This document shows, piece after piece, positions 1 through 38,668 of a stretch of 64,000 bases of DNA. Origin of the DNA: Naegleria gruberi (taxonomy: Eukaryota); assembly GCA_000004985.1 (NCBI GenBank), contig GG738919.1; one strand, given 5' to 3'. The stretch's first letter is position 1; the number at the start of each line of letters is the position of its first letter. The notes under the pieces were generated by a model, which saw only the letters and a list, made by a program, of their open reading frames with translations, had not been told where the DNA came from and did not search any database. The position numbers and the translations under genes are program-made.

Positions 1-632
1 AAATCTCTAGTAGAGTCGATATAATTTTTAATGACAAACTCAATTTCTCCTTCTTTGGTACTGTATCCGTCCAATTCTATTGATTTCTTCCTAATATATT
101 GAATAATACCAGGAAACAGCTTTTCCAAAATAACCTGACCTCTATTGACCAAGATATGTGGCAGGTAGCCATGACGATGTTTGACCACTGACTCTCCTTC
201 ATTATATTTTGTCCTCTCTACAATAACAACTTCTTTAAAAAAAGGAGCAAGACAACTGGCAGTCAATAATCCAGAAATTGAGCCTCCAATAATGACAGCT
301 CTTTCTCCCACAACAGTGTCAATCGTTCTTTCACTGATCATTGGTAAATTCTGAACTGCTGGATACGTTTCTTCATTCACTATAAAAGGTTGAATTTGAT
401 CGGAAGCCAACTGACAATCCATACACAGTTTTTTTAGCCTAAACATTTTCGTTATTATTTTTGCTAGTCCAAATATCCAGGCTAGTACTACAATAATGGT
501 CATGATGAACATGCCACATTGATAAAAAGTAATATTGTCTTGTGAAGTGATGATGGTAGTGGTTGCAGTTGTTGTTGTTGTTGTTGTGGTGGTGATTGGT
601 TGATGATAGGAAAAATCTAGAATTTTGTCCAT
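1..632 (-). CDS. FAD-dependent oxidoreductase/monooxygenase-like protein, N-terminal part (ATG at 632; gene runs off the window start)
   Basis: Reverse-strand translation from the ATG at 632 gives a poly-Thr tract, a hydrophobic membrane anchor, then a dinucleotide-binding GxGxxG motif (VIIGGSISGLLTA). The reading frame stays open to position 1. It is absent from the ORF track only because it is cut by the window edge. Confidence 0.5.
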   Translation of the reverse strand, partial: MDKILDFSYHQPITTTTTTTTTATTTIITSQDNITFYQCGMFIMTIIVVLAWIFGLAKIITKMFRLKKLCMDCQLASDQIQPFIVNEETYPAVQNLPMISERTIDTVVGERAVIIGGSISGLLTASCLAPFFKEVVIVERTKYNEGESVVKHRHGYLPHILVNRGQVILEKLFPGIIQYIRKKSIELDGYSTKEGEIEFVIKNYIDSTRD

Positions 633-5350: not shown

Positions 5351-5777
5351 TTTTTTTAATTAGAAATAATTTATCAACTTGAAGAAATCAACACCACAGT
5401 CGCGAATGATGGAATTTATTGAAAGTCATGATTCAAAATACAGCTGAAATGGGAAATTATTCGAATGTAAATTTGTCTCCAATTTAAATTAATAAAAACT
5501 AAAATTGCGAATTGTTGCCATCAATCCAAACCAACTCATCCAATAAAGTTCTACTCTCACAGTATCTAAAGTCAACAAGGGACAACAAGATAATCAAACA
5601 GATTTCATCAGTAATTTTTGTGACATGCTCTCCAAATAATTGCATTTTCACAGAGGTAAACTCTTTTAACATCACACTTAATGATCCATCACCATTCAAC
5701 AACTCATTTGAATTAACAGTCAACCTCCAATAGCCAGTTCCGTCTAAATTGGTTCAAAAAATTCTCATTATTATTAA

Positions 5778-7178: not shown

Positions 7179-10019
7179 TTAAACTGTATTATTGGTTTTG
7201 GCTTGTAATTTGAGGAATGCTTGTGTTATCTTAATGTACTGGTCAAATGTCATGTGATCTTGAATTTGTTTCTTGGTGTAACGTTGGTTAATGGCTGGCC
7301 AGTGACTAATAAGGGCTTGTACACATGCTTTTCGTAAGTGGTGATAAGGAGAAGAACGATCGAAAAAGAAGGATTTTTGGAATTCTAAAACATTGCTCTC
7401 TGTCAAACCTTCAATTATTATTGATTGACAACGCAAGCTAATTTGATGATTAATGTCCATTGAATAAAAGTTCCACTTGGTTAAAAAGCTGACAGCATTG
7501 CTACCATTCAACAGTACCTGATTAGTGTATAGATACTTGATAAAGGAAATATGAGCTTGAACTTCTTCCTTGTCCTCTTCTTCCGAATCGTCAGAAATGT
7601 CAAATGAATCCATATCACACATTCCTGATGTAAATTTTACTCTGAAAAAATCGCACTTGACTGCCAGTATAGCCTTGTGAGCATGGATGGTTGTACTTTT
7701 AGAAAGAACAAGTTTAACATCACCAGAATTAGTTGTCTGTGTTTTTGCGTATAAACTCTCCATATCTTCTGAGAAGGTGGACGGAGGAATTGATACATCA
7801 CTTGATCCCAAACAATGATAATTTTCACCTGCTGTCAATGCTTCTATAAGGGCCTCTTTTGAAAGATCATTATAGTCCTTAATCTCGTTAATAGTATAAG
7901 TCTTTTCAATCTTTCTAATTAGTGCAATACAGTGTCTGTAAATACTTTCAATGAGTGGATGGTTTTTGAACAGTTGTAAAGCAGAGAGTGTCTTGACAAC
8001 AGTTCCATTAGTGATACCGGATAGGGTATTTTGTAAAACAAGCTTTACATAACGTGCAATGTTGGAAATACTTGGAGGACCAGAGGAAAAGTCCTTGTTA
8101 CTCTTTTCTGCAATCCATAAAATCACGTCCAAATCTTCTTGAATAGTTGTACCAAAATCATCGAGAACGTCTGTGTAAATATATTTGAGAATCTTTAGGA
8201 CAGACTTGCTGGAAAGTGTAGAAATGGAAGAAAGGTCAATAATTCTTATGGAGGATTCACCCCTAGATTTTCTCTTCTTGCTTGGTCTTTCAAGTGATGG
8301 AACTCCACTCACATCCTTACTAAATGCTTCAAAGAATGGAAATCTTGCCATAACAAAATCATACAGGATTGGATACTGTTTATCATCACTGCAAATAATG
8401 TAAGAATCCAATAGACTCATAATATCTTCATTGTCAAAGTCTAAAAGTTTTCCGAGTGTATCTTCATGGACAGCTTCAGTATATTCCTTATTTTCAGCTT
8501 CAACCATCAAGGTATCTCTACCGCAATATACATTCATGACTCTATGTTTGAAAGTTCTGCTAAACTTTTCAATCTTTGGAGTTTCGAGACAACCTAATTG
8601 TCCACACTTGTTACTACCAGTCAAGAACATTTCTCTCTTATCAGTAATTGCAATAGAATAGTATGAATAACAATAAAGGTCCTGTACAAAATGGTGACCC
8701 AGTGATGATGCAGACAATGGAATATGAGTAAATGAAAATAGTCTTGGAACGGTTTCACCAGTAGCAAGTTGCCCATCTCCATTTCTACCACAAATGAAAA
8801 TCTTACCAGTTTTTGTAAGAAAGGCAGAGTGATGGAAGCCACAACTAATACTCTTGATTGGCTCATTGTTTGAGACTGGTATTTTGGTTGGAGAGTAGAG
8901 ATTTTGTTTACCAAGTACTACAGGATCAAGTCCAAGTTGTCCATTAACAGTTGTACCAGCTCCCCAAATTTCACCACTGGCAGTCAAAAATAATGTGTGG
9001 AATTCTCCACATTCTATTTGTACAATATCTTGTCTTATAAATAATGGGTCACGAACAACAGTAAACTTTTTGATTTGAGGCAATTCTATACCAACTCCAC
9101 ATTGGCCTCTAGAATTGTCACCACAAGCATAAATATGATCGGTAGTTTTGATAAAAGTATATTCTGATCCACAGGATGCAAAAAGAACCTTTCCTGAAAA
9201 TTGAGTAATTAAGCGTTGAGGTGATGGATAAATATTCATAGATGGAAGAGACATTTGACCTGTCTTGTTCTTACCACAAACCCATACATTATCATTAGGT
9301 TGGTTTGTAATGAACATTGTGTGGTATCTTCCACATTTAATATCGGTAATCAATTCTTTTGGCATGCCATTCAAACTTGAATCTACAAATTTGAAAATAT
9401 TTACAACTTTTGTCAAATTTCCCATTCCTAATTGGCCATAATTATTCTTTCCGCATGCATAGAGCTGATTTTCTTTTGTTAGTAAAATTGTATGATAGTG
9501 TCCACAGGCCAAGAACTTGACTTGAGAAGGATCAATTGCTGGATTATTCAGCCTTGTAAAGGATGAAATTTTAGCGGAATCTGAAACTGGATTTCCAAGT
9601 CCAAGCATCCCAAACATATTACTACCTGTAACAAAATAAGAAGATGAATTTTCGGATGATGATGAAGAGGCTGATTTGGTTTTTTCGTAATTCATTATTA
9701 ATTGGTCCAAATTTACATCTCCATACACATCATCGTCATCCTCACTGGTAGGCTCTTCAAACGACTTGATTTCTTCTAATTTTCTTTTTGATGGTGTATA
9801 CGGACTCAATGCATCATTATCACCCGAAAATGAATCATCGATAGAAAAGGCACCAGCGAATCTGCTTCTACTAGATTCTCCGTTACTACTACTCACAAGA
9901 TGACCATTCAATGTACTAAAATTATTATTATTATGAATTGAAGAAGAAGCATGTTGTTGGATTGTTGTGCTTTCATCGTCATCATCATCAACGATATCAA
10001 TTACTTGCTGTGGAAGCAT
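7179..10019 (-). CDS. RCC1-repeat and BTB/POZ domain protein (RCBTB-like)
   Basis: 946-aa ORF with an acidic poly-Asp N-terminus. It has multiple RCC1 blades with GQLG/GQCG signatures (YACGKNNYGQLGMGN, CGDNSRGQCGVG, GTTVNGQLGLD, GSNKCGQLG) and a C-terminal BTB-like segment (VKLVLSKSTTIHAHKAILAVKCDFFRVKF). Confidence 0.75.
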   Translation of the reverse strand: MLPQQVIDIVDDDDDESTTIQQHASSSIHNNNNFSTLNGHLVSSSNGESSRSRFAGAFSIDDSFSGDNDALSPYTPSKRKLEEIKSFEEPTSEDDDDVYGDVNLDQLIMNYEKTKSASSSSSENSSSYFVTGSNMFGMLGLGNPVSDSAKISSFTRLNNPAIDPSQVKFLACGHYHTILLTKENQLYACGKNNYGQLGMGNLTKVVNIFKFVDSSLNGMPKELITDIKCGRYHTMFITNQPNDNVWVCGKNKTGQMSLPSMNIYPSPQRLITQFSGKVLFASCGSEYTFIKTTDHIYACGDNSRGQCGVGIELPQIKKFTVVRDPLFIRQDIVQIECGEFHTLFLTASGEIWGAGTTVNGQLGLDPVVLGKQNLYSPTKIPVSNNEPIKSISCGFHHSAFLTKTGKIFICGRNGDGQLATGETVPRLFSFTHIPLSASSLGHHFVQDLYCYSYYSIAITDKREMFLTGSNKCGQLGCLETPKIEKFSRTFKHRVMNVYCGRDTLMVEAENKEYTEAVHEDTLGKLLDFDNEDIMSLLDSYIICSDDKQYPILYDFVMARFPFFEAFSKDVSGVPSLERPSKKRKSRGESSIRIIDLSSISTLSSKSVLKILKYIYTDVLDDFGTTIQEDLDVILWIAEKSNKDFSSGPPSISNIARYVKLVLQNTLSGITNGTVVKTLSALQLFKNHPLIESIYRHCIALIRKIEKTYTINEIKDYNDLSKEALIEALTAGENYHCLGSSDVSIPPSTFSEDMESLYAKTQTTNSGDVKLVLSKSTTIHAHKAILAVKCDFFRVKFTSGMCDMDSFDISDDSEEEDKEEVQAHISFIKYLYTNQVLLNGSNAVSFLTKWNFYSMDINHQISLRCQSIIIEGLTESNVLEFQKSFFFDRSSPYHHLRKACVQALISHWPAINQRYTKKQIQDHMTFDQYIKITQAFLKLQAKTNNTV

Positions 10020-10445
10020 TTTTTGTTTTTATGTTTTTCAAAGGCTAAAAAAGTATCGAAGGATCAACAATTTTGTTATTATTATTATTTGGGAGTTGTA
10101 TAATGTATTGTTGAGTGTTTTTAAATTTTAATACGACCAGACGTGATGAAGTGCCTTCCTGCAGTTTAAAGTAACAAATACGACGCTGCTCTTTTTGATG
10201 TGAGGACTTTTTTTTCTCGTGTTGTCTGGAAAATGAAGCTTGAACGCCTGCGAACTTTTTTGCATCAGTATCATGTTTAGAAAACAAGTAATTTTGTGCA
10301 ATAGATAATGACAAATGAAACTCTCTCTATTTATTATTATTAATTAACAAGGTATTAATCAGCAAATTGAATTTATCTGCTTGGTTATATTATTAATAAT
10401 TTTAAATCGGAATTAATTCAATCAATTTTAAATTATTTTGAAAAA

Positions 10446-12116
10446 ATGTTCGTTAATCATTTGATACGTAGAGTTTCATCGTCCTCTTCCTCTGCTGTGT
10501 TTGCTTCATCATCATGGAAACGTTTATTGGTGGGCAATAATAGTGGTGGTATGATGATGGCAGGCTTATTGAAAAATTATCAAGCACAAGCTTTCATTCA
10601 AGCACAAGAATTATCATTCCGAAATTCTGCTAATTATCATTATAATTTTAAAACATTAAATTCATCATCATCGGATAACAATAATAACAATCAAGAAGGA
10701 GAGCAAGAATTAATTCTTAGTGAAAAGGAAAAACCAATTTATGAATTATTAACCATTGTTTCTAATTCTAATAGAATTGCTCATACAATTTATGATAATG
10801 TTCATCCTTTTACTACCTTGTTGGCACAAATTGAAATGATGATCAAAATGATGGAAGAATTGGCTCAGACGCAGGATCACTTTTTGGGAGATTCAATTCA
10901 TGAAACTATTAATGCTTCCAAAGAATTGCAAATTACAGTTCTCTGCAGAAGGGCCAGTTGTGCTATGGTTTGTTGGAGAAGAGCTCAAACAGAGGAGGAA
11001 AGAAATCAGTACTATTCAATTATGGAGCAGGATTATGATAAAGCTTTCAGTTTTGGAATTGCTAGTGATGAACTTGATTTTGGTTTTGCTAGTTTTTGTA
11101 AGGTTGTTAAACAAGATTTGAGACAAGCTCTTCATTATGTCACAAGATCAATTGAATCTAATCCAAATGCACCAATCAAGTTTTTGAAACGTGCCGAATT
11201 ACAATTTGAATTATTCGAATATTTGAAAGAAACTGGTGAAAATATGAGAGTTGAGGAACGATCAAATTCTACTGGTGCATCAAATAATAATGGAGGAGCT
11301 CCAGAGAGTACTGCCATCACCTCATTCTCAGTCAATCCAGAATGGAGTGATGAAGCATTGGATACTCTCAATAATTGTCTGATAGATTGTGAGAGATATA
11401 TTGAGGATACAATTCAACAAGCTAAGGAGCATAATATTAAGGACTATTACTTGGATTATTATGTATATAATTTGAGAGGAAGAGTTTTTGTAGAGTCCTT
11501 CCTTTCTGATATGGGAAATACCGAGACATCTAAAATTTTCATTGCCAATGCCGAGAGAGATTTTACTTTATATATTGATCATTTTAAACCTGAACAAATT
11601 GATAATTTACATCCAAATTACATTTCAGAATTGTGCTCAGCTCATGCAAGGAGAGCCATGTGCCGATTGCACAACACCAATATCAATCCAGAACATGCCA
11701 AAGAGGATATTGAAAGAGCAACCCAATTATTGCAAAAGATTTCAAATGGAAATGATTACAGCGACATTACTAACTTTATTGAAGAGCTCAAGGTTCTCAC
11801 CCATGCCAAATTAATGCACAATAAGGCCACTGAATTGGGAGCTAAGGCTGCTCAATGTCAACAAACCAATCCAGAACTCGCTTTGGAATATTTGAATGAG
11901 GCCATCAAGACTTGTGAAATTTCTCCAATCGCCATGCTGTACATTCAACGTGCTTTCCTCAACTATGAAACCTTTAGAAAACAAACACAAGCTGGCATGC
12001 AAATTAATGATCCACTGAATAGAGAAATTATGGATAGAGTAGCTGAAGATTGCCAGTCGGCCATCAATAAATGTTTGTTATTTGCCAAATGTTGGAATAA
12101 GGCCTGTCGTACATAA
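10446..12116 (+). CDS. hypothetical helical protein (possible mitochondrial presequence)
   Basis: 556-aa uninterrupted ORF in AT-rich DNA. The N-terminus is Ser-rich and basic. The rest looks like alpha-helical repeats. I recognise no specific family. Confidence 0.5.
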   Translation: MFVNHLIRRVSSSSSSAVFASSSWKRLLVGNNSGGMMMAGLLKNYQAQAFIQAQELSFRNSANYHYNFKTLNSSSSDNNNNNQEGEQELILSEKEKPIYELLTIVSNSNRIAHTIYDNVHPFTTLLAQIEMMIKMMEELAQTQDHFLGDSIHETINASKELQITVLCRRASCAMVCWRRAQTEEERNQYYSIMEQDYDKAFSFGIASDELDFGFASFCKVVKQDLRQALHYVTRSIESNPNAPIKFLKRAELQFELFEYLKETGENMRVEERSNSTGASNNNGGAPESTAITSFSVNPEWSDEALDTLNNCLIDCERYIEDTIQQAKEHNIKDYYLDYYVYNLRGRVFVESFLSDMGNTETSKIFIANAERDFTLYIDHFKPEQIDNLHPNYISELCSAHARRAMCRLHNTNINPEHAKEDIERATQLLQKISNGNDYSDITNFIEELKVLTHAKLMHNKATELGAKAAQCQQTNPELALEYLNEAIKTCEISPIAMLYIQRAFLNYETFRKQTQAGMQINDPLNREIMDRVAEDCQSAINKCLLFAKCWNKACRT

Positions 12117-12147
12117 TATGTAAATAAAACTTCAGTTAAAACAATAA

Positions 12148-13197
12148 TTAACCTACCTGTTTACAATGTTCTGCACATTCGGATTCACTATGGCCATCAA
12201 ATACTCCGAACATGGCATGGAATTTAAATTGAGAAATTGGATGCTGATTAAGGGCTTCCTCGATATTCTTTACGAAAAAGTGTTCATCTTCCATTGTTGG
12301 TCTTTTTCCTTGAGCACTCGCTGATGAATATGATAATTTTCTAGTATGTGTAAATAGAGATTCAAATTGCCCATTGGACATTTGAGGTAAGGCATGAACG
12401 CTAATTGGTCTGTGGAGAGGATTTCTCATCTTGTCTATTTTCAATTCATCTAGAATTGATTTTTTACTTGGTGTAGTAGCCGAAGGTTTAGAAGGGGATG
12501 AAGATGATGAAGCAGAAACATTTCTTGTTGGAAATCTTCCTAGGGTATTATTTGCATTACTCGTTTGAATACCTCTTCTCGGTTCTATTGAGGTTGAATT
12601 ATTTCTATAGGCAGGTGATGTAGTAACATCTTTAAAAGCAGCCGTATTGGGCGAACTATTGAGTGATGTTGGAGTATTTCCACCACCCTTTGGAGGAGTT
12701 GAAGGAATCATGGAGAGAGTTTGTCCTGATCTGAAAACTTTGGGAGAACCCACATCAAGTTTCCTATTCTTATTACCAGAAGGTGTTCTCGAAACATTGA
12801 TGAGAGACATTGTGTTAGGGTAACTCGAGTTTTTAGTTGATGATTGTGGTGATGTATCATGAGAGAGAACACTTCCAAATGATGCAGTTGTACTACTACC
12901 ATTATTATTTGAAGCACTACCTCCTGAGGAAGGTGATACAATACTGTTGTTTCCACTATTGCCTCCAGAACCACCACTAGAACCAAAACCAATATTTTGA
13001 TTATAAACATTTACATGTAATGATCTTAGTGGTTTGGAATGGCTCGGACTAGCAACGAAATTCTTTGATGAGGAAGGTGAGGTTAAGTGTTGTTGAGAGG
13101 AGTGATGATGGAGTGAATGATTGGAATTATTGTTGGGAGATGTTGCTGAATTGTTGCCGCCTCCTCCATTTGGTGATATCGATAAACTCCCTCTCAT
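12148..13197 (-). CDS. Ser/Asn/Gly-rich protein ending in PP2C-phosphatase N-terminal motifs; probably the 5' exon of a PP2C gene
   Basis: 349-aa ORF. The last ~60 aa read ...QGKRPTMEDEHFFV...FHAMFGVFDGHSESECAEHCKQ, matching the PP2C signatures G.R..MED and FFGVFDGHGG..A. The ORF then ends at a consensus donor CAG|GTAGGT (GT at 12156-12155). See findings. Confidence 0.5.
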   Translation of the reverse strand: MRGSLSISPNGGGGNNSATSPNNNSNHSLHHHSSQQHLTSPSSSKNFVASPSHSKPLRSLHVNVYNQNIGFGSSGGSGGNSGNNSIVSPSSGGSASNNNGSSTTASFGSVLSHDTSPQSSTKNSSYPNTMSLINVSRTPSGNKNRKLDVGSPKVFRSGQTLSMIPSTPPKGGGNTPTSLNSSPNTAAFKDVTTSPAYRNNSTSIEPRRGIQTSNANNTLGRFPTRNVSASSSSSPSKPSATTPSKKSILDELKIDKMRNPLHRPISVHALPQMSNGQFESLFTHTRKLSYSSASAQGKRPTMEDEHFFVKNIEEALNQHPISQFKFHAMFGVFDGHSESECAEHCKQVG

Positions 13198-14371: not shown

Positions 14372-14421
14372 NNNNNNNNNNNNNNNNNNNNNNNNNNNNN
14401 NNNNNNNNNNNNNNNNNNNNN
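14372..14421. other. assembly gap (50 N)
   Basis: Run of N. Confidence 1.
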
Positions 14422-14956
14422 TTGATATTGGTGCAATCCATTCACTCCATTATGTATCATTCCGAAACTCTTATCCATATAATAGTTATTATTTAATATA
14501 TTAATAATAATTATCACAACAATGAATATTATTAAAACAGAAAATGAAACTCTGGGAAATAGTATTTGTGTCCTTGATCGTCGTAGAATCATTTTTTTGT
14601 GGTGATTCTCGTTTCTTGATTACAAAATTACATTCTTGGTGGTGTGAAAGATTTTTATGATTATTGTAAAGTTGTTAAATAAATCATCAAATTTAGTAAT
14701 TGTAAACTCAAAAACCCACATGTATCAGCTTATACTTTCAACTAAAGGAATTTTGAAATATCAAGTGCAGTCAACTGTTTCTATACCAACGCACTAATCG
14801 AATGCGCATAATAATTTGTACACCCTCATTAAGATGAAACCTAGGTGGTTCCAACTTGTATCACATATCGGCCAATTCAAAACTCTAAATCCCGACTATT
14901 CATTTCCTTTAAATTTCACACAAAAAGCCGAAATACTAAATAAATCTCATAAAAAA

Positions 14957-15676
14957 ATGTCTCAACAAGTAATTGATCTCAACAAGCAACATTTCGACAA
15001 GATGGCTCTCGATTGGGGAACCAATCCAATCTTTGCCGAGATGAGTAGAAAATTTGCAACTGGTATTATGGAAGAATTGAGAAAACACCTCACGAATCAA
15101 TCATCAATGCAAGTGATGGATTTTGGTTGCGGAACTGGAGCTCTTTCATTGTATCTATTGAATGAATATGGACAGAGTGTTGAATGTTTGGATGCAGTAG
15201 ATGTGAGTGAAGGCATGTTGAAGCAATTTGCTGAAAAGAAGGAAAAATTGGTCGGAGAAGGCATGTTGAATGGTAACTTGTTGCAAATTCATAATTTAAA
15301 TTTGACCACGGATGATCATGCACTGATTGGAAAGAAGAATAGTTATGATTTGATTGTGTCCTCCATGTGTTTCCATCACTTGCCAAATATTCCAGAAAAA
15401 CTCAAGCTTTTTGCTTCCTATTTGAAACCTTCTGGAAAACTTGTCTTTTTGGATATGGACAAGGATTTTCCACTGATTGAAACATTCCATCCAAGAAATA
15501 TGGGTGATGAATTGCAATATGAAAGCGGATTCTCTGAGGCAGAGTTGAGAGAGTGGCTCGATTTGGCTGGCTTTGAAAATCATCAATTTGCTAGAAATGT
15601 CACAATTGAAAAGAAGGGATGGGACGATGTGATGAGAAGTTACACTCTCATGACCACTACTTCATTTAAAAAGTAA
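14957..15676 (+). CDS. class I SAM-dependent methyltransferase
   Basis: Motif I VMDFGCGTGALSL and downstream LIVSSMCFHHLPN / KPSGKLVFLD motifs. ATG at 14957 sits in an A-rich context; an alternative in-frame upstream start is at 14816. Confidence 0.7.
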   Translation: MSQQVIDLNKQHFDKMALDWGTNPIFAEMSRKFATGIMEELRKHLTNQSSMQVMDFGCGTGALSLYLLNEYGQSVECLDAVDVSEGMLKQFAEKKEKLVGEGMLNGNLLQIHNLNLTTDDHALIGKKNSYDLIVSSMCFHHLPNIPEKLKLFASYLKPSGKLVFLDMDKDFPLIETFHPRNMGDELQYESGFSEAELREWLDLAGFENHQFARNVTIEKKGWDDVMRSYTLMTTTSFKK

Positions 15677-15775
15677 TATATTGTTTTCATTTGTGTAAAT
15701 ATCAAAATTTCATCCTGTTTAATGTTTTTTACTCAAATTCCAATTCAATTAATAATTCAATATGTAATAATCAAA

Positions 15776-16627
15776 TTATTCTTGAGCCTTCTTCTTTTGT
15801 TTTTGTAACCATTCACGATAATTCTTATCAGTTCCACACAAATAATCCCACCAAGTAAATGTTGAAGCATAATTTCCATTGTAAGTCTTGTGATGGAAAT
15901 CGTGATGAAGTGGACCACTATAGAATGGAATTAAATTACTCATACACCATGGGAAGTAGAAACCTGTATGTGTATCAATGGCTTCAATTTGACGAATTGT
16001 CATCCATACCCACCATCCAATAATGTGTGGAATTCCAAAAAGGAATGGTCCAATAAACGAACCAACACCCAACAAGACAAACTCTGTACAACTAGCATAT
16101 GATGAGCAGTAACCAATTGGTGTCTGATATTCGTGATGCATTTTGTGAATATGCTTATAGGCCCATTCAGTATGCAACCAACGATGAATCCAATAAAAGT
16201 AAGCATCTTCAATCACTAAGAAAATCAAGGAACGTCCAACCATATCCCACCATGGTGGAATATTCATATCATAACTCACACCAACCCATTTAAGAACAGG
16301 ATATCCAGTATAAAGCAATGGTAAAAGCAACAAGTGATTAAGTACTAATTGAAAAACACAATTCCAATCTGTTAACCTTTCTTCTTCTTTCAATTGAAGT
16401 TTGTACTTGTAGAGGAAAGAAGGCTTGAATTTCTTAATTAAAAACCATGGCAAGGACAAGATTCCATACAATACAAAGATATATGCAAGGGATACATAGG
16501 TTGTAATTTCCAACTCTGAAAAGTTTGAACGAATTAAATAATAAAATTGATGCAGGGTATCCATTTGATTTAAATCGACATTTCCAACCCAATCAGGGAG
16601 AGTAGAAGAAGGGGTGGTACTACTCAT
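15776..16627 (-). CDS. sterol desaturase / fatty-acid hydroxylase superfamily protein (ERG3/ERG25-like)
   Basis: 283 aa with several hydrophobic helices and three His boxes: HRWLH, HKMHHEY and HHDFHH. Confidence 0.75.
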   Translation of the reverse strand: MSSTTPSSTLPDWVGNVDLNQMDTLHQFYYLIRSNFSELEITTYVSLAYIFVLYGILSLPWFLIKKFKPSFLYKYKLQLKEEERLTDWNCVFQLVLNHLLLLPLLYTGYPVLKWVGVSYDMNIPPWWDMVGRSLIFLVIEDAYFYWIHRWLHTEWAYKHIHKMHHEYQTPIGYCSSYASCTEFVLLGVGSFIGPFLFGIPHIIGWWVWMTIRQIEAIDTHTGFYFPWCMSNLIPFYSGPLHHDFHHKTYNGNYASTFTWWDYLCGTDKNYREWLQKQKKKAQE

Positions 16628-17078
16628 GATGATGACGATGATATATTTTGTTTGTTGTTAAAATTGATGAAGAGGATCTTGAAATATTTAGAGTTTCGTT
16701 TTTTCTCACTCCGAAAGTAAACGGTAGACGAACTGTAGGTGGTGTTTGAAGGTGGACATTGAAGTAGTGGAGATTGAATTAACCCGATTATCTAAAGAAG
16801 AGCATTTTGATCGGTTAATCGCTTCTTTTTTTTTAATATTTAAATTAAATAGTACTACAAATTGGTATTACTCTTTCAATATATTGTAAAGCAAATTAAA
16901 TATTATTATGTATTTAATAATATTTAAACAAAATTAAATTTTTGTTCAATCTAAAAAATTAAATTCAAAAAATTGCCAAACTTGTACAATGTTGATATAT
17001 TAATTATTTTTCTATTTTCTTAAGAATTGCTTAGAGAAAAGAAAAAATTGTCGTTACGAGAAATAGTGAGGTGGTAAC
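16628..17078. promoter_or_regulatory. divergent promoter region between the sterol desaturase (-) and chromate transporter (+) genes
   Basis: 451-bp very AT-rich interval (long A/T runs) between divergently oriented start codons. Confidence 0.3.
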
Positions 17079-18830
17079 ATGATTTCTTCCTCATCTCGTC
17101 ATCACAATGATGATGAAAGTGTTAACAAACAACAATATTCGGAACGAGAAGAATTTAATGGTAATCAACAAGAGGATAATATAATTAATAATCAACAAGA
17201 GAATCAAATAATAGGAAATAATAATGATGATGATAGAGACGATGATGAACCAATTAGAATATTAACAACAACTAATAATACAAAATTGCAACAATTACGA
17301 GCCTATGTATGGAAAATAGCCAAATTATCATTTGATATGCTTCCTATTGGTTTTTTAAGCTTTGGAGGTCCAATGGCTCATACTTCACTGCTACAGGATC
17401 GATTTGTTATTAATCATCAATGGTTAACTCCAGAGGAGTTTTCAGAATTGTTTTCCATTTGTCAATCATTGCCTGGACCATTAAGTACCAAATTGGTGAT
17501 TGCTATTGGAACATTGAGAGGAGGATATGTTGGAGCTTTGGTGAGCTTTCTGATATTTTCATTACCAAGTGGATTGGTGATGGGAATTGTTGGAGTTTTG
17601 ATGAAAGATGTGGACACGGATATTCAATTTCCTTATTGGATAAAGATTGCTTTGAGTGGATTTTCGTGTGCTGCCGTGTCCATCATTATGCATGCTGGTT
17701 ATTTGATGGCCAAGAAATTGACAGTTGGTTCCAAGTTGTATCAGAGCTTAATGATTGGAGCATTTATATTATTTTTGATATATCAAACTTGGTGGATGTT
17801 ATTATCGATCATGATTTTTGGAGGACTTTCGAATTGGTTTGGGGAATATGGAGGCAAATATTTCAAAAACAAGTATGAAAATTTCACAAATTCATATGAA
17901 CAAAATGCAGTAGGAAATAAGGGAAAGTTTGAAAGCATTATCAAATTTTTGAAATTTTCCAAATATTTCATGTTGGAATTATTTACAGATTCAAAGGTGA
18001 AAATTAAAAAGATTTTCAACAAGGGAATATTCAAAAGATCTACCAATTATGAGCAAGTTGATGAGGCAACACCCTCTCCTGCTGCTGAGACACCCTCCTC
18101 CACTACTGCTAGTCAAATCATTTCCAACAGTGTTGACAAATCCAACGATAACGAAACAAGCAATACCATTGAAAAGAGCAAGGATATTTCACTTAAACCA
18201 ATCATGGGAATAATTTTTATTACCATCTTCATCATGCTACTACTAAGCTTATTCATTTCAAGACAATTTATCGAGTGGACTCCACTCTATCTTGCAGAGG
18301 GATTTTTCAGAATTAGCAGTTTGATATTTGGTGGAGGGCATGTCATTCTTCCTGTTATTTTGAATGAGTTTTCCGTAAATCCTAATAATTCCACCTTGCC
18401 AACCATTTCAGAATCGCAATTTTTGAATGGATTTGCCCTACAGAATGCCCTACCAGGTCCATTATTCAATTTATCAGCATTTGTTGGTGGAGTGATTGGA
18501 GGTCCACTCGGTGCATTCATTTCCTGGTTTTGCTCCTTCCTACCGCCATTCCTTTTCATGTGGACTGCCATTCCTCTTTGGAACAAGTACAGAGATAATA
18601 AGAGTGTAAAAATAATTCTGGCTGGAGTGAATGCCTCAAGTGTTGGATTTGTCTTTGTAGCAGGTTATGTATTGTGGTTGTCATGTGTGGAAACTCAATT
18701 CGTGCCAGCTGCCTGTACAGTCGTGTTGAGTGTTTTGTTACAATCTGTGATTGATGCACCTGCACCACTGGTTATTCTCTCGGGAGGTCTCATTCGACTA
18801 GCTCTACAACCTCTAGCACAAAATTCTTAG
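17079..18830 (+). CDS. chromate ion transporter (CHR/ChrA family), duplicated two-domain form
   Basis: 583 aa. Both halves carry CHR signatures: the N-half has SFGGPMAHTSLLQDRFV...WLTPEEFSELFSICQSLPGP and the C-half has IFGGGHVILPVILNEFS...FLNGFALQNALPGP. There are multiple TM helices and an Asn/Asp-rich N-terminal extension. Confidence 0.75.
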   Translation: MISSSSRHHNDDESVNKQQYSEREEFNGNQQEDNIINNQQENQIIGNNNDDDRDDDEPIRILTTTNNTKLQQLRAYVWKIAKLSFDMLPIGFLSFGGPMAHTSLLQDRFVINHQWLTPEEFSELFSICQSLPGPLSTKLVIAIGTLRGGYVGALVSFLIFSLPSGLVMGIVGVLMKDVDTDIQFPYWIKIALSGFSCAAVSIIMHAGYLMAKKLTVGSKLYQSLMIGAFILFLIYQTWWMLLSIMIFGGLSNWFGEYGGKYFKNKYENFTNSYEQNAVGNKGKFESIIKFLKFSKYFMLELFTDSKVKIKKIFNKGIFKRSTNYEQVDEATPSPAAETPSSTTASQIISNSVDKSNDNETSNTIEKSKDISLKPIMGIIFITIFIMLLLSLFISRQFIEWTPLYLAEGFFRISSLIFGGGHVILPVILNEFSVNPNNSTLPTISESQFLNGFALQNALPGPLFNLSAFVGGVIGGPLGAFISWFCSFLPPFLFMWTAIPLWNKYRDNKSVKIILAGVNASSVGFVFVAGYVLWLSCVETQFVPAACTVVLSVLLQSVIDAPAPLVILSGGLIRLALQPLAQNS

Positions 18831-21203: not shown

Positions 21204-22847
21204 CTATCTCTTCTTGGATGGATTTTCAACATTTGCTGTTGAGGTTGAGGCTTGCTTTCTCTTTTTTGTTGGAGCTTGTTCTTCACCTGTTTTGATAAAG
21301 TGTTCCCAGTCAATCTTACTGTTAATGTCATTCTTGAATTTGGAAAAGTAATTCTTCCATCTCTTATCCATATTTTTACAAGTTGAAACATATTCCTTAA
21401 AGATTGCTCCATTTTGATCTAATTGCGCCAATATTTCTGGAGTTTCATGAATCCACTTGATAGTACTAATGAGTGAAGAAATCTCTAATTGAGATTTCCA
21501 ATTGAAGAATTGGTATGGATACGAATCTCCAGTAAATCCTGGTGAGGTTTCGTATGCTCTATCGAGAGCTGAAAATAGAACTGTCTGGTCATTGATATCA
21601 ACATCTAGTAATTTCATATAACCTGAGGTAACAAATTTTCTAAATACATCCAAATTCTTGCAAGATCCAACAAAGGACACTCTTGTTTTCAGATTGAATG
21701 GTAATCTGTTTCTCATAAAGAATTCATAACACTTTTCATGTTCAAGAGGATCAATAGTTACATAGTCAATATATTGTCCATTAACAATAGTCTGTGCTTG
21801 AATAAAACCATTTGTAATGCACAATATATTTACAAGTCTGTCATTACGTTTCAGTGCAACCATTTTCTTAGGGTTGTTTGGAGATAAACTTGAAAAATAC
21901 CCAAAAGTACTGGTTGATGCTGGTGTATCATCCACAAATGGCCTGGTTTTAATATTATCAATGTCGAGATACTCAAAGGATGGGATTTCAAAGTGTTCAA
22001 GCTCGCATTCATGGCTCATGTATTGATAAAGGTGGGTTGACTCGATTTCGCTAGTTATGAATTTTGGGTATAATGCATAGAATGGAGTGTCTAGAAATAC
22101 AACAGTTTTGAGATATTGAAAGTAGTTAGTTTGCTTGGTAAGCTTAACATCTTTGGAGAATTTTTGTAATTGAAGCATATAAGAATTACTAGTAACAATT
22201 TTTTCCTCAAATGGCTGGAATTCCAAAGCTATTGAGCTATGGTAATGACTATTATAAGTTCTAAATCTTGAAAGATAATCATCTACATCCACATCATTCA
22301 ATTCATTCCTCACTTCACAATTGGAAATCACAAGAGTTTCAACAGAGGTTCTTCCAATAGCTTTCAAAATCTCTGGAGTGACCATCATAAAGTGGAGAGT
22401 GACCTTTTTAACTCCCCTACAATTTGCAATAATCTTCAACAAGTCGGAATATTCCATTCGATAAGGATCGACCTCAGCTGTACGATTTTATCATTTCAAT
22501 TGATGGTCCATCATCGGAAACATGCGATCAAATTGTAAATTTTAGAAAGAATTATTAAACAATAAAAACAAACAGCATTACTTACAAAAATCCAAATGAA
22601 AAGCCGAATATTCAAAGTAATCATTCATCAGAAAATTGAAAATATCCTTCCACGATTTACAAACTCTAGACAATCTAAAATAATTGGGCAAAACTGGAAG
22701 AAAGGACAAGATTTCGGAATAAATTTCCAATGGAAGATCTTCCCACATATTTGCTAATGTTCTAGATCCTTCTTCTTGCACAGTACTAGGACTACTGGGA
22801 CTAACTGGATGAATGTCGGTGGAAGTCAAAGAGTTTGAGTTTTGCAT
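21204..22847 (-). CDS. F-box protein, two exons: join(22586..22847, 21204..22477)
   Basis: Exon 1 carries a classic F-box (LPLEIYSEILSFLPVLPNYFRLSRVCKSWKDI). The donor T|GTAAGT at 22585 and acceptor TACAG| at 22478 remove a 108-nt intron (phase 1). This joins exon 1 exactly in frame to the 417-aa downstream ORF (...HLDF-SEVDPYR-MEYSDLL...). The ORF-track start at 22886 is GTG; the first ATG is at 22847. Confidence 0.6.
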
Positions 22848-23158
22848 TTTTTTTTGATTTGAAAAAATGCTTTTACCCAGTCGCACAATTTAATAAGATT
22901 TACAGTAACAAAAATATTCGTATAGTTGCAACTATTGAAATCTTACACAAATATAAATATTGAAGATCGAGGTTGAAAGTGAAAGTAATTGTATGAGTCA
23001 AATTGGAGATGTGAAGCAAATGGCCGTTCAAAAGTGAAACTGTTGCTAAAAATGGTCACAAACATGTGACAAGTGAAAACATTCTGAAAGAAGATATGTG
23101 AAGCGAAACTAGTTATTGAAAAAAATAGAGAGATAATAGGTTGGTTGACAACTTTATC

Positions 23159-25376
23159 ATGGCCAGTTCTTCGTCTCCAAGAAAGGTTTCGTCAAGTGAT
23201 GGAATTTATTCTATTCCTCTGAGTGTAATAATAATTAATCATCAACATGATAATTTGCAAAATAATTCACTTCAGTTTCTGGGCTCATCATCATCAACCT
23301 CTGATCTAAAAGGTTTGTCATCAATATTATTATTGCTATGATCCGAAAATATGTGAAATAGCCAACTACAGTTTACTTTCGAATATTTCCACTACCAATA
23401 TTGCAGCAGAACAATCACCAACTACAAGCTCCAATCTTTCCTCTTCTCCTAACTTACAAAACTTGAAAAGCAAACGCAAGTCAAGTTCTTTCAATTCCTT
23501 TGATAGTTCATCAGAAATTACCTCATTTCACATTAATTTGCAAGGATTATCCATTTCTAACAAATCTCTCTATGATTATTCAAGTCCTCCTACCTCTCCA
23601 AAATATGGAAAATTATTCAAGAATGCCCATGAGCAAGAATCTATTGGAATATTGAGGAGGAAATTTGAATCATTTCTTATTGATAAGAAAGTCAATTATG
23701 GAGGACATAATAGGGAAACTCATATTTGGAAATTACTATTTCTTGATGATTTTTACAATGTTTTGAATGGAAAGAGTAGAAAATTTGATGATATTGAGGA
23801 GTTATTTCATAGATGTGATATTTTCTTGAGTATCTTGATTGGAGATTTGGGTCAATTCAAGTGTTTAGAAATGTTTAAGAATGAACAGTTCAGTACCTTT
23901 TCAACAACATTTAAATATCCACATTTGGAGAGTTTTGATTTGGTCATACAGGAAATATTGACGACCTATTCCAATAAGAAGAGAAACCTATCACCACCAA
24001 ATGGAATTTCTCTATTGCTTGCCCACGAATATTTACACAAGTGGCTCACAGAACTCAACTCTACATGCCACGAATATTTAAAATTGGCTTCACAAAATCA
24101 AAATCTTGAAACTCAACAATTGAAAACCCAACCTAAACATCATCACATGGTGGTGGAATCTATTTCACCCATCTTTGAGGAAATTGATCCACAAGAAATT
24201 CAAAATCCTCACTTTGATTTTGTATCAATCACTAGGAAATCCAGTTCCTCTTCCTCTAATGCATTCGACATTGCAAGTTCTTCTTCAGCGGATGAAGATA
24301 ACTGTGCACCAGCTGATTCAAAACAAAAAGAACAATTCATGAAGGAGATTATTAGCCAAAATCAAATATTTGATTTGAAAGAGAATGAAAATACCTTACT
24401 CACCTCTCTCAAATTACTCAATCAAATGTTCTATACTGAGCTTGAAGACTACTTTAACTACTTTCAAAAAACCAGCTCTAAATTTTTGAAAAAGTGGTTC
24501 GACAATAATGTAAGAAATCTTCCTCTGCATTGTATTGATGCCATTCAAAAGAGAAAGAAACGATATACGAGCTATCATGAGAGCTTTCGGTTAACAGAGG
24601 AGGATATGAACTTGAAAACCATTGTTGATGCCGACTTTGATTTTGTACATTATTTGTGTGAACATACAGAAGATTGGCAATTATTGGATCTATTCGAAAG
24701 TGATTCAAGCATTCAAGTGTACAAATCTAAAGAAAATTACTCAACAATATCAGGAATGAAATTACAAAAATATATTACACGAGTTAATCAGCCAATAGAA
24801 GTAGTGGCTCGAGCATTGTTGGCCAATGAAGCTCACGGGGATCAATATGGCTTACTAGTAACTGGAAAGTACTATGACTATAGGGAGATTGATTTGAATT
24901 CCTCGTCCAACAAGTATTCAACAGTTATCCAATCATGCACGATAGATTTTGGATCTCTTTTCAGAAAAAGATGTTTGGAAAATGTCATTTCAGCAAAAGG
25001 AACCTTTACAACAAATAATGAGCTTGTCGAAGTTACTCAACTCTACAAGACCTGCTCATATCTCAATAAGGACGAGGAAGAAGGTGCCCGTAAGGTAGTA
25101 ATGATGGGTACCAGATATTTGCAAAAAGAAGACTCTAATACTACCAGAATTGTAGATGCTCGAATGTTTCACCTAGGAGGTATCATGAATTCAAATTTAA
25201 TAGTGCACAAGCTGAGTGTTAAAAAGATGGTGCAATTCTTCTCTGATTATCTCAACAAGTGTTTGGAGAGTGCAAAAAAGAATAGCTATGCTGCGCCTGA
25301 TTTGAAGGAGCATTGTGTGTGGCGAACCTTCTCGGACTATTGTAGAATGCACTACAAAATTGATGTGAATAAATAG
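23159..25376 (+). CDS. hypothetical protein, two exons: join(23159..23312, 23407..25376)
   Basis: ATG at 23159 (MASSSSPRK...). The donor G|GTTTGT at 23313 and acceptor TTGCAG| at 23406 form a 94-nt intron (phase 1) that restores the frame of the 637-aa ORF, whose ORF-track start is a TTG. Ser-rich N-terminus. The C-terminal ~200 aa could be a lipid-binding START-like fold (weak). Confidence 0.5.
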
Positions 25377-36270: not shown

Positions 36271-37926
36271 TTAGTCAGCTTCATTTATTAGGGATGGAGA
36301 TTCAATGGTCTTCTTAATTCTTGACATTGTTTTAGATAAGAGTGCCAGCAAGTTGGCTTCTCCCTCTCCTCTCACCTTTTCTTCACTCACAATTCTGTCT
36401 TGCAACTTGTTAAGGGAGGAATTAACGAGCTCCTGTTGCTTTTCAATATCTGCTCTCAAATCAAATAAATTCTTCTTACTCTGTTTATCATTCTGTATAA
36501 TGAGTCTCTCCAATTTATCACTTGTTGGTTGAATAAATTCAGAGAGGATTTCCATTTTCTGAGCATTCATTAATTGCTGTACATTATTGAATTGGTGAGC
36601 AGTGTTAATCTTTTGAGATTCCAGTGTATTTTGAATTTGTTCCAATTTGCTCCATATTGGGTCTGTGCTTTGCCTAGTTTGAGTTCCAATCTCTGTAAAT
36701 AACTTTTCCAATTGTGTTGTTATTTCATTTATATGTGCATTGGAGAGGTTTGAAAGGGTGGATATTTGTTTCTGAACGTCAAGCTCCATATTATTAATCT
36801 TTTGTTTGACGTCTGTGAATTTGATTTGAGTCTCTTTCGATTCGGATATGATTGAGTCTGCCAATTGCTTTCTCTCTGTCTTGTATTGGTTGAGGAAGGA
36901 ATTGAAATTAGTACTGAGGAGATGCAGCTGATTTGATTGAGAGGATAATTCCTGTGAGAGTGATTCTATATTGAGGTGAACAGTGGAAACTTGCTCCTCC
37001 AGATTTTTCAGTCGTTTTTTGACGCTTTCATTTTCTTGAATTCGTGCATTCTTTTCCTGTTCGATTCGGGAGGACAGCTGGTTGAACTTTTCTTCAATGA
37101 GATTGGTAATATTCTTCTCACCTCTTTCTCTATTGCCTCTCTCATGGAATAGTTGAGTTTCCAATTTTTCGAGAGCTCCATTAGTAGAATCCACTCGGCT
37201 ATTAACCTTATTTGTAAATGTATTAACATTATCAATCTTTGACTCTATGGATTCAATTTGCATTTGTCTCTTTTTTCTGACCTTTTCTTGTTGGGCGACT
37301 TGAGCATCAATGGCTGAAATCTTTGAGCCTAAATCGGCAAATTTAATCTTTGACCCAGCTCCTTCAACACTATTTGAGGTACCATTGAGAAACTCATCTT
37401 CAGTTATTTCATCACTGTCATTACTTCGAGAGTCATAATTAGTAATTGAATTGAGAGCAGATCGAGAGAATTGCTTCCCAGGACTATCAGAATTGTTGGA
37501 ATGCGATGAGAGAATATTATAATTATTATTGTTGGGAGATTTCTTAATATTATTGCTAACATTTGAGGAGCTCAAGGTTGAGAATGAGGGTAAATTAATA
37601 TACTTTCCAAAAGTTTGAGGAACAGTAGAAGAAGACGATGCAGGACTCAAAGGTTCTAGATATCCATTTGTGCTCCCACTACTGCTATTGTGATGAGCAT
37701 TGTACGATCGTGAACTGCTCTGCGAGGATGGAATACCTGTTCTCAAGGGAGATGAAGCCGATGAAGTTGTAGATGATGAAGTTGTGGTATTAAACTTGAA
37801 ATAATCGATTTGTGGTTGTTGTTGTTGAGGTACTTTAGGACTCCTCAATACAGGAATCATTGAATTATTACTATTTGATGAAGAATTGGTAGCCATCAAA
37901 CTAGTTCCCCTCCCATTATGAATCAT
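36271..37926 (-). CDS. coiled-coil protein with Ser/Asn-rich N-terminus
   Basis: 551 aa. The N-terminal ~170 aa are low complexity (S/N/P-rich). The remainder is heptad-rich (SMC/myosin-tail-like composition) without a specific family signature. Confidence 0.5.
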   Translation of the reverse strand: MIHNGRGTSLMATNSSSNSNNSMIPVLRSPKVPQQQQPQIDYFKFNTTTSSSTTSSASSPLRTGIPSSQSSSRSYNAHHNSSSGSTNGYLEPLSPASSSSTVPQTFGKYINLPSFSTLSSSNVSNNIKKSPNNNNYNILSSHSNNSDSPGKQFSRSALNSITNYDSRSNDSDEITEDEFLNGTSNSVEGAGSKIKFADLGSKISAIDAQVAQQEKVRKKRQMQIESIESKIDNVNTFTNKVNSRVDSTNGALEKLETQLFHERGNRERGEKNITNLIEEKFNQLSSRIEQEKNARIQENESVKKRLKNLEEQVSTVHLNIESLSQELSSQSNQLHLLSTNFNSFLNQYKTERKQLADSIISESKETQIKFTDVKQKINNMELDVQKQISTLSNLSNAHINEITTQLEKLFTEIGTQTRQSTDPIWSKLEQIQNTLESQKINTAHQFNNVQQLMNAQKMEILSEFIQPTSDKLERLIIQNDKQSKKNLFDLRADIEKQQELVNSSLNKLQDRIVSEEKVRGEGEANLLALLSKTMSRIKKTIESPSLINEAD

Positions 37927-38668
37927 ATTCTCTCAATAAAGTTGTTGTTTATGGCAGTATTTTTTAAAATCTGAAGGTAGATATTATTCCGCCAAATTAC
38001 TGTAAATAACAAACAAGTCTATGGAGAGTGGTTAAGGTAAAAAAAACTTTGTGATGTTTGGTGATGGAGATTTTTAGTTAATGTGTATCTGTGGACCATT
38101 TTTCATGTCAATGCTCTATTCGTTTGTAACACATCTGTTTGACCAAGGTTTTAGTTGGTTCCAAATACACATCCTTCCTAAGATTTCTTTCTGCTAATCC
38201 ATTCTAACATCATATTTGAAGACTTCAAATAAGAGAGCATGCAAATTTATTAAAATATATTTCATAAACAAGAACATAAAAGTGGTACTTAATCAAACCT
38301 TCAAACTCTGTGTGTTTGCAACAATAAATGGCCGATTTAAGTCGTGTTATGAAGAAGGTGCGACAACCAGTGGTGTTTTGTAAAAAAGTCAGAGCCGGAC
38401 CTACCTTAAATCATTAGAGCCATTTGAATGCCTTTTTGAAAAAAACAGCACAAACATTATTGATATCTTTCCACTAGATTATACATTCTGTTGTTTTTCT
38501 TCTAGTGCAAAACAACAATATTGGATCACACTTATGTGGGAAACCAATTATTTTTGAACATGATACCCAACAATAACCACTTTCTAAAGAACGTCCTCAA
38601 TCTCCTTAATACAAGATTCTTCCCATCAACAAGTTCACCATCAATTATCTATTGCAAGCATTCTAAGC

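Follow-up and report, generated by a model that had tools for sequence, protein, structure and literature searches.

In the 64-kb stretch of Naegleria gruberi DNA analysed here (the window), a single junction at positions 12064/12065 joins two genes tail-to-tail, each of them truncated at its 3' end. Homology to a PP2C (PPM) phosphatase on the minus strand and homology to a weakly TPR-like gene on the plus strand both stop at this point, so one junction truncates the 3' ends of both genes. The feature was left either by a rearrangement or by faulty assembly and does not represent a hidden or nested gene; ordinary under either origin, it reveals no new gene architecture or mechanism. The reading that we favour, with confidence a little better than even, is that the N. 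gruberi strain sequenced underwent a genuine, recent and local rearrangement, possibly in one haplotype only.

In the minus-strand gene, exon 1 encodes an N-terminal region of low complexity, rich in Ser and Asn, and then the first PP2C motifs, RPTMEDEH and FGVFDGH. The initial annotation had drawn attention to a 349-aa ORF (12148..13197, minus strand) whose C-terminal end, ...GKRPTMEDEHFF...FGVFDGHSESECAEHCKQ followed by VG and a stop, carries these motifs and runs into a splice donor, CAG/GTAGGT. Coordinates and motifs are borne out, as is the phase 0 donor, with its G at 12156 and the in-frame TAA at 12150..12148; this donor is real and conserved in the orthologues. The resemblance to PP2C is not a product of chance. 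An exhaustive phmmer search with the exon 1 ORF returned orthologues down to E=5.6e-63 (P0001), with P0007 at 5.5e-45, the N. lovaniensis PPM phosphatase P0008 at 8.2e-42 and P0009 from Willaertia at 3.4e-23. Against the Pfam profile PF00481 (curated cut-off 20.3 bits), the unspliced ORF scores weakly (14 bits, E=0.04, residues 290-347, profile positions 3-54 of 255). Adding the 13 codons of exon 2 raises the score to 22.1 bits, but over profile positions 3-67 of 255 only. The acceptor suspected at about 12107 is also real, with its AG at 12105-12104 and exon 2 running from 12103. Feature coordinates are collected in Table 1.

Table 1. Features around the junction, in window coordinates.
Feature	Position	Strand	Details
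RCC1-BTB gene	7179..10019	-	Pfam; tblastx to L007 and L012; synteny anchor
Weakly TPR-like gene, 5' 540 codons	10446..12065	+	100% identity to P0002; orthologues P0003, P0004 and N. fowleri
Plus-strand ORF read-through tail, non-homologous	12066..12116	+	NKCLLFAKCWNKACRT, then stop; antisense of PP2C exon 2 and intron 1
PP2C exon 2 read-through, non-homologous	11963..12063	-	antisense TPR-like DNA; 33 codons and stop
Breakpoint junction	12064..12065	.	PP2C homology (-) ends at 12064; TPR-like homology (+) ends at 12065
PP2C exon 2, first 40 of 68 nt	12064..12103	-	encodes ALFQHLANNKHLL; L001 nucleotide and protein alignments, Pfam
PP2C intron 1	12104..12156	-	53 nt, GTAGGT...ACAG, phase 0; position as in L001, L003, L005 and spliced P0008
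PP2C (PPM) exon 1	12157..13197	-	347 codons; ORF and phmmer matches to P0001, P0007, P0008 and P0009
Assembly gap, 50 N	14372..14421	.	2.3 kb from the junction

The gene is built alike in its orthologues from N. lovaniensis, N. fowleri and two metagenomic Naegleria: a long exon 1, intron 1 at the donor found in the window, a 68-nt exon 2, intron 2, and a single last exon encoding the remaining ~195 aa. Both introns are short, about 40-130 nt. Orthology with N. lovaniensis C9374_012331 (P0008, 603 aa; 77% identity to the last 106 residues of the window's exon 1) and N. fowleri FDP41_010249 (P0136, 560 aa) is indicated by the four strongest matches of the exhaustive search, which are that group, by the same intron 1 position and exon 2 start, and by the same RCC1-BTB chromosomal neighbourhood. 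The two proteins also possess a long low-complexity N-terminal region, like the window copy. Orthologues have the full domain, however (for P0008, 241 bits against PF00481 over positions 3-255 of 255), whereas the window copy ends at position 67, and no truncated form of this kind occurs in any relative examined. The exon 2 peptide ALFQHLANNKHLL aligns with VLFQHLANNKHFL, SLFKTLATNRHFM, TLFQILAKNRCFL and NLYKLIGKNKHFL of the orthologues. In the metagenomic relative L001 (~96% identical; 97% protein identity), exon 2 is intact and goes on as ...SDIERAFVEG, like the orthologues. The nucleotide alignment of the window with L001 covers exon 1, intron 1 (53 nt in the window, 43 nt in L001) and the exon 2 bases as far as 12064, beyond which it is random.

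This structure bears on the proposal of a nested or overlapping arrangement, in which an intact PP2C gene would reach its remaining exons by way of a long intron spanning or overlapping the convergent gene. In its favour there is no more than a good donor and too little room for the rest of the domain. Exon 2 begins 53 nt past the donor and is itself interrupted, in the orthologues one last exon follows two short introns, a tblastn search using four close orthologues detects no further PP2C segment in 64 kb, and the convergent gene is truncated at the same nucleotide. A long intron spanning that gene is refuted, and the chance that the gene is intact by any such route is negligible. Also proposed were 3' exons embedded antisense in the neighbour, which holds in part: exon 2 does begin inside the neighbour's ORF, with 13 codons at 12103..12064. 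The exon is cut at 40 of its 68 nt, however, with no further exon present, and the last 16 plus-strand codons that it overlaps are not genuine coding sequence but read-through into antisense PP2C DNA.

The remaining PP2C domain, described initially as not visible downstream, is missing from the whole 64-kb window. The suggested tblastn search with a PP2C core was run over this full length with human PPM1A and recovered the known N-terminal piece only, all other matches having E>=1. The C-terminal ~200 aa of P0008, P0009, P0018 and P0019 likewise gave no PP2C match anywhere in the window. Given these negative searches with PPM1A and the four orthologue C-terminal parts, hidden PP2C exons in the window were rejected. 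What the window holds falls short of a complete ~250-aa catalytic domain with the C-terminal metal-binding Asp motifs (DGxWD, DN).

The plus-strand partner, an ORF of 556 aa at 10446..12116, does end 31 nt from the 349-aa ORF, as first described, and is identical to the N. gruberi 'predicted protein' P0002. Its homology to the N. lovaniensis and JGI-metagenome orthologues ends at 12065 (...DCQSAI), and the final 16 codons read PP2C exon 2 and intron 1 in the antisense direction. Orthologues P0003, P0004 and that of N. fowleri go on as EIDPSSKTTEARVVLAEYY... within one exon. The conserved C-terminal tail of ~64 aa, EIDPSSKTTEARVVLAEYYKNVTGEKDKAVEQYEIVLKNYL, is contiguous and intron-free in three species; P0003, P0004 and P0005 carry it as EIDPSSKT..ARVVLAEYY..., and the window ORF lacks it. 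Nor does the tail occur elsewhere in the window: a profile of three tail sequences reached a chance-level 5.7-6.9 bits there, compared with a null best of 6.8±1.6 (60 Markov-simulated windows, best score of each). One tblastn match at 5509-5640 on the plus strand (E=0.35) starts exactly at the first missing residue; it was rejected as chance, being intergenic, with no PP2C sequence adjoining and 5.7 bits against the tail HMM. An intron of the TPR-like gene at the break, suggested by an odd N. fowleri C-terminus, was likewise rejected: the N. fowleri assembly contains a frameshift there, and reading on in another frame gives an uninterrupted tail.

Because the neighbouring gene is cut at the same nucleotide, the site is a breakpoint, produced by rearrangement or misjoin, and not an odd gene architecture. 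At the junction, the first 540 codons of the TPR-like gene on the plus strand meet the promoter-proximal part of the PP2C gene on the minus strand, which retains exon 1, intron 1 and the first 40 nt of the 68-nt exon 2. Each ORF continues into the antisense of the other gene up to a chance stop, and this mutual read-through accounts for both the 556-aa ORF and the apparent embedded exon. On the PP2C side, the read-through peptide MADWQSS...FLKVS takes its first base from 12064. If transcribed and spliced, the PP2C product would have 393 aa and ~26% of the catalytic domain (profile positions 3-67 of 255). PP2C enzymes carry metal-binding Asp motifs in their C-terminal part (ACDGLWD and DN in an orthologue); the predicted 393-aa product lacks them and would thus be an inactive remnant. 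Among the explanations first offered, a truncated, catalytically dead PP2C remnant comes closest, although the cut in the neighbour at the same nucleotide was not foreseen. Intact copies, if any, would lie outside the window.

Synteny indicates that the join is local. In other Naegleria, an RCC1-BTB gene lies near both the TPR-like and the PP2C gene. On N. lovaniensis contig PYSW02000058.1 (locus tags C9374_012320 and C9374_012331), the TPR-like gene occupies 22441-24279 (minus strand), the RCC1-BTB gene 36801-40070 (minus strand) and the PP2C gene 44372-46356 (plus strand), so that ~20 kb separates the TPR-like from the PP2C gene. N. fowleri records put the PP2C gene FDP41_010249, and likewise a TPR-like fragment, FDP41_010240, on a contig of 25.9 kb. 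With a genome of ~41 Mb, a random chimera would rarely take so near a partner. The path from these layouts to the window order, RCC1-BTB (minus), TPR-like (plus) and PP2C (minus), is not simple. A deletion between convergent neighbours was rejected, since the gene downstream of the TPR-like gene is HSP70-like in N. lovaniensis, N. fowleri and L007 and the N. lovaniensis PP2C gene lies on the other side of RCC1-BTB. A single inversion or tandem duplication does not give the window order from these three layouts either. Beyond the RCC1-BTB, TPR-like and PP2C genes, the window contains no N. lovaniensis neighbours, and no reciprocal junction was found in it.

This difficulty, in that no single inversion or deletion yields the window order, counts against the rearrangement and in favour of an assembly or cloning artefact, which we regard as less probable but a substantial possibility. 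The PP2C and TPR-like genes would then be intact in the real genome, the junction having arisen in a clone that was chimeric or had rearranged locally, or from a misjoin where coverage of the draft Sanger assembly was low, and the missing 3' parts would reside in unplaced contigs or gaps. The 50-N gap 2.3 kb from the junction hints at poor coverage, the two truncated ORFs are fully open apart from the cut, and exon 2 is intact in the close relative L001. The junction, known from one 2010-era draft N. gruberi assembly, is backed by no second data set: neither of the chimeric ORFs, nor the JGI model P0002, matched independent N. gruberi sequence in exact look-ups, and scans of JGI metagenomes with a 31-nt pattern and by protein guidance returned no close relative. 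Searches for the PP2C 5' fragment as an annotated N. gruberi protein found none. Against an artefact, the junction lies in unique coding sequence with neither a repeat nor an N run to mislead an assembler, and reading the sequence there suggests an overlap of about 2 nt at the most. The partner also comes from the same ancestral neighbourhood and not from a random locus, which excludes a random ligation chimera and leaves a rearrangement internal to a clone. A weak further point against the artefact is the lack of any N. gruberi protein with the missing PP2C C-terminus in an index that also missed the source protein of the query.

The state of the PP2C fragment points in two directions. The motif DGHxG reads DGH-SE (DGHSE) in the window copy and DGH-CG in L001 and all Naegleria orthologues, C9374_012331 and FDP41_010249 included; the second residue after DGH is Gly in 128 of 128 homologues retrieved and Glu in the window, which is unexpected in a functional gene and suggests real decay. 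On the other hand, exon 1 is fully open over 347 codons, the fragment has accumulated no frameshifts or stops, and 24 of 184 codons differ from L001, 19 synonymously and five non-synonymously. This pattern resembles strong purifying selection, as for an intact functional gene, and it fits an artefact readily; any real truncation would consequently be very recent or heterozygous. The open ORF and few non-synonymous changes might instead mean that the truncated product was kept for a new non-catalytic function, with the Ser/Asn-rich region and PP2C stub acting as a scaffold or decoy. We consider this very unlikely, as recency explains the low dN/dS equally well, the 33 residues newly gained at the C-terminus are arbitrary, antisense-derived sequence, and no relative examined shows the truncated form.

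Two known classes offer close parallels. Like a unitary or truncated pseudogene at a rearrangement breakpoint, the window shows two unrelated genes cut within coding sequence and abutted with at most about 2 nt of overlap, each ORF reading foreign sequence to the first stop; it differs in having no inactivating lesions, a working-gene selection signature and a junction known from the draft alone. Like a chimeric join in a draft whole-genome shotgun assembly, it displays an abrupt two-sided homology break at one nucleotide, a gap nearby and absent continuations. It departs from that class in lacking a repeat, in having a partner from an ancestral ~20-kb neighbourhood and in carrying a mutated invariant residue in a catalytic motif.

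The main value of these observations lies in annotation hygiene. In the public N. gruberi 556/520-aa "predicted protein" model, the last 16 residues are antisense PP2C sequence, and comparative work should treat neither this model nor the PP2C fragment as a full-length member of its family. A real junction would mean that, in one haplotype of the reference strain at least, a conserved PPM phosphatase and the tail of a conserved TPR-like protein were lost through a recent structural change. A bolder version, which we hold to be rather doubtful, is that a real and recent junction in NEG-M, perhaps in one haplotype of a polyploid laboratory strain, created two expressed chimeric genes at once. 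For each gene, the new C-terminus would then come from translation of the other's antisense strand, a natural and datable case of de novo C-terminal sequence birth. A PPM phosphatase would also have been lost within a species complex in which the ~96% identical L001 keeps an intact exon.

The minus-strand ORF 12148..13197 (349 aa) ends in ...SAQGKRPTMEDEHFFVKNIEEAL...FHAMFGVFDGHSESECAEHCKQ and at a CAG|GTAGGT donor, with an in-frame TAA two codons further on. The stop of the plus-strand ORF 10446..12116 (556 aa) lies 31 nt from its end. ORF reading of the window bears out the coordinates of both ORFs and of the donor in the initial annotation. In Pfam the unspliced minus-strand ORF matches PP2C below threshold (14 bits, E=0.04, profile 3-54/255). 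An exhaustive phmmer search with the fragment over 1.8 billion representatives returned four strong orthologue matches, namely P0001 (E=5.6e-63, 97% identity), P0007 (E=5.5e-45), P0008, the 603-aa PPM phosphatase C9374_012331 of N. lovaniensis (E=8.2e-42), and P0009 of Willaertia magna (E=3.4e-23). The PP2C signature claimed earlier is therefore genuine, and the fragment is an orthologue of the Naegleria PPM gene C9374_012331/FDP41_010249.

A single exon-intron structure is common to the four PP2C sequences compared: L001, the 833-bp metagenomic contig of a close relative that encodes P0001 (24/184 codons differ); the JGI contig L003; the N. fowleri-like contig L005; and the spliced N. lovaniensis model. 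A long exon 1 is followed by intron 1 (about 43-130 nt) directly after ...HCK(Q/E/K), a 68-nt exon 2 coding xLFxxLAxNxxF(L/M)xDIxRxF(V/I)E, intron 2, and one final exon for the remaining ~195 residues. The window retains intron 1 and the start of exon 2 (table). With its 13 exon-2 codons appended, the Pfam score is 22.1 bits and the match reaches profile position 67, so that the acceptor suspected at first reading, and the weak PP2C resemblance past it, proved correct. L001 has a coverage of about 1x, and its distal 3' sequence, from intron 2 on, should be treated as unreliable. Its positions 1-18 (ENA ERZ12289978) read GATGTGTATAAGAGACAG, which we take to be untrimmed Nextera transposase adapter.

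Nucleotide alignment with L001 is near-perfect to 12064 (...CATTT[A/T]TTGA) and random beyond. Past this point L001 codes SDIERAFVEG, as do all orthologues; on the minus strand of the window MADWQSSATLS... follows, up to a stop codon at 11963-11965. On the opposite strand, the alignment of the TPR-like protein with its orthologues ends at ...VAEDCQSAI, the last codon being 12063-12065. The ~64 further residues of the orthologues (EIDPSSKTTEARVVLAEYYKNVTGEKDKAVEQYEIVLKNYL...) are missing from the 556-aa ORF, whose last 16 codons (NKCLLFAKCWNKACRT) lie antisense to exon 2 and intron 1 of the PP2C gene. Since PP2C homology ends at 12064 and TPR-like homology at 12065, both genes lose homology at one point, with a possible overlap of at most 2 nt as read from the sequence.

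The plus-strand ORF matches the N. gruberi "predicted protein" P0002 (520 aa) at 100% identity and shares its C-terminus; the window is part of the draft assembly of this species. Orthologues of the ORF come from N. lovaniensis, N. fowleri, and a JGI metagenome. P0002 begins at an internal Met (MMAGLL...). In the N. lovaniensis and JGI orthologues the N-terminus (MF...) lines up with the start of the longer ORF, MFVNHL... at 10446, so the P0002 model probably lacks its first 36 codons (10446-10553). The tail is contiguous and intron-free in N. lovaniensis and the JGI species. The same continuity holds for N. fowleri: its annotated protein FDP41_010225 (contig L013, VFQX01000080.1, about 11250-11620) ends ...DCKKPSKLIHLLGQ... 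only through a 1-nt frameshift in that assembly, and the conserved tail AIEIDPSPRTTEARVVLAEYY... lies in the adjacent reading frame. A second fragment of this gene, FDP41_010240, lies on another contig.

The missing halves were not found in the window. Queried with human PPM1A and the C-terminal parts of proteins P0008, P0009, P0018, and P0019, tblastn gave nothing better than E≈1 across the 64 kb, which refutes the proposal of a long intron or nested gene holding further PP2C segments. For the TPR-like tail, the window gave chance-level matches only. One candidate, 5509-5640 (+), has its first aligned residue precisely where the missing tail begins, yet it is intergenic and lacks flanking PP2C sequence. 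A tail HMM built from three sequences gives it 5.7 bits, where the top match in each of 60 simulated windows scores 6.8±1.6; it was rejected.

Gene order in other Naegleria species bears on how the two fragments came together.

Features of the window and of the corresponding N. lovaniensis region
Feature	Sequence	Position	Strand	Remark
RCC1-BTB	window	7179..10019	-
PP2C exon 2 start	window	12103	-	reads ALFQHLANNKHLL
PP2C intron 1	window	donor G 12156, acceptor AG 12105-12104	-	53 nt
N run	window	14372-14421		50 nt
Class I SAM methyltransferase	window	14816..15676	+
Fatty-acid hydroxylase	window	15776..16627	-
Chromate-transporter family protein	window	17079..18830	+
N run	window	60573-62856		2284 nt
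HSP70-like	PYSW02000058.1	20896-22338	+
TPR-like	PYSW02000058.1	22441-24279	-	intervening genes next, up to RCC1-BTB
RCC1-BTB	PYSW02000058.1	36801-40070	-
492-aa gene, then abhydrolase	PYSW02000058.1	between RCC1-BTB and PP2C	both +
PP2C	PYSW02000058.1	44372-46356	+

N. fowleri has the same order (RCC1-BTB ... TPR-like → ← HSP70-like), its PP2C gene FDP41_010249 and TPR-like fragment FDP41_010240 each being recorded on a 25.9-kb contig; in the JGI species, the RCC1-BTB, TPR-like, and HSP70-like genes are immediate neighbours. The window runs from RCC1-BTB through the TPR-like 5' part to the PP2C 5' part and holds no other N. lovaniensis neighbour of these genes. These layouts support an origin of the genes joined at 12064/12065 in one ancestral neighbourhood of ~20 kb, a join hardly ever to be expected of a chimera formed by random ligation. 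No single simple inversion, deletion, or tandem duplication derives the N. gruberi order from the layouts of the other species, and the window holds no reciprocal junction.

The reading we lean towards is a genuine rearrangement that is very recent or confined to one haplotype. The junction lies in unique sequence without a repeat, the partner gene is local, and two neighbouring derived substitutions (Cys-Gly to Ser-Glu, minus-strand codons AGT GAA, 12184-12189) give DGH-SE in the catalytic DGHxG motif, against DGH-CG in L001 and every orthologue; the final Gly is kept in 128/128 retrieved homologues. An assembly or clone artefact is possible, if not what we expect. An assembly gap lies 2.3 kb from the junction, the exon is intact in the close relative L001, and the 347-codon exon 1 is open throughout, its differences from L001 comprising 19 synonymous but only 5 non-synonymous changes. 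Independent support for the junction was likewise not found: exact look-ups of both ORFs and the JGI model gave no match, and two metagenome scans gave no close relative. Against an artefact, a word-indexed protein search found no N. gruberi protein that carries the PP2C portion absent here. Negatives from that index are weak evidence, because it missed P0008, though present in the collection, both for the window fragment and with P0008 itself as query. N. gruberi has also been re-assembled from nanopore reads (PMC12695648).

Transcription and splicing of the PP2C fragment, should they occur, would give a 393-aa product: a Ser/Asn-rich N-terminal region, then some 70 residues of PP2C fold bearing the first acidic motif and DGH, and 33 arbitrary residues. 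In the PP2Cα structure, Asp residues of C-terminal motifs complete the binuclear metal site; their counterparts (ACDGLWD and DN in P0008) would be absent. Replacement of the Gly in DGHxG would not be expected in a working phosphatase, and, judged by its sequence, the fragment would not function as one. With its domain incomplete and the invariant Gly replaced, it falls outside the PP2C domain proteins. In the window the conserved tail of the TPR-like gene is lost and 16 arbitrary residues are gained. As a phenomenon the case is familiar: either a gene cut off at a breakpoint, or a misjoin in a draft assembly.

RCC1-BTB and TPR-like are divergent in the window across a 426-bp spacer (10020-10445). 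On JGI contig L007 they stand in tandem on the same strand, as they do in N. lovaniensis and N. fowleri, where other genes separate them, so a second orientation change falls within this spacer. At the left end, 69-215 (-), part of a gene that runs off the window, matches L003 8836-8982 over 49 aa (73% identity). The L003 segment is the N-terminus of a gene of 581 aa, without a Pfam domain, about 4 kb beyond PP2C. This match may be a further trace of the shared neighbourhood or only a paralogue. None of the genes at 14816-18830 shows synteny with the PP2C or TPR-like loci of other Naegleria. The very low GC of 60-64 kb in the composition profile coincides with the larger N run and is not real sequence.
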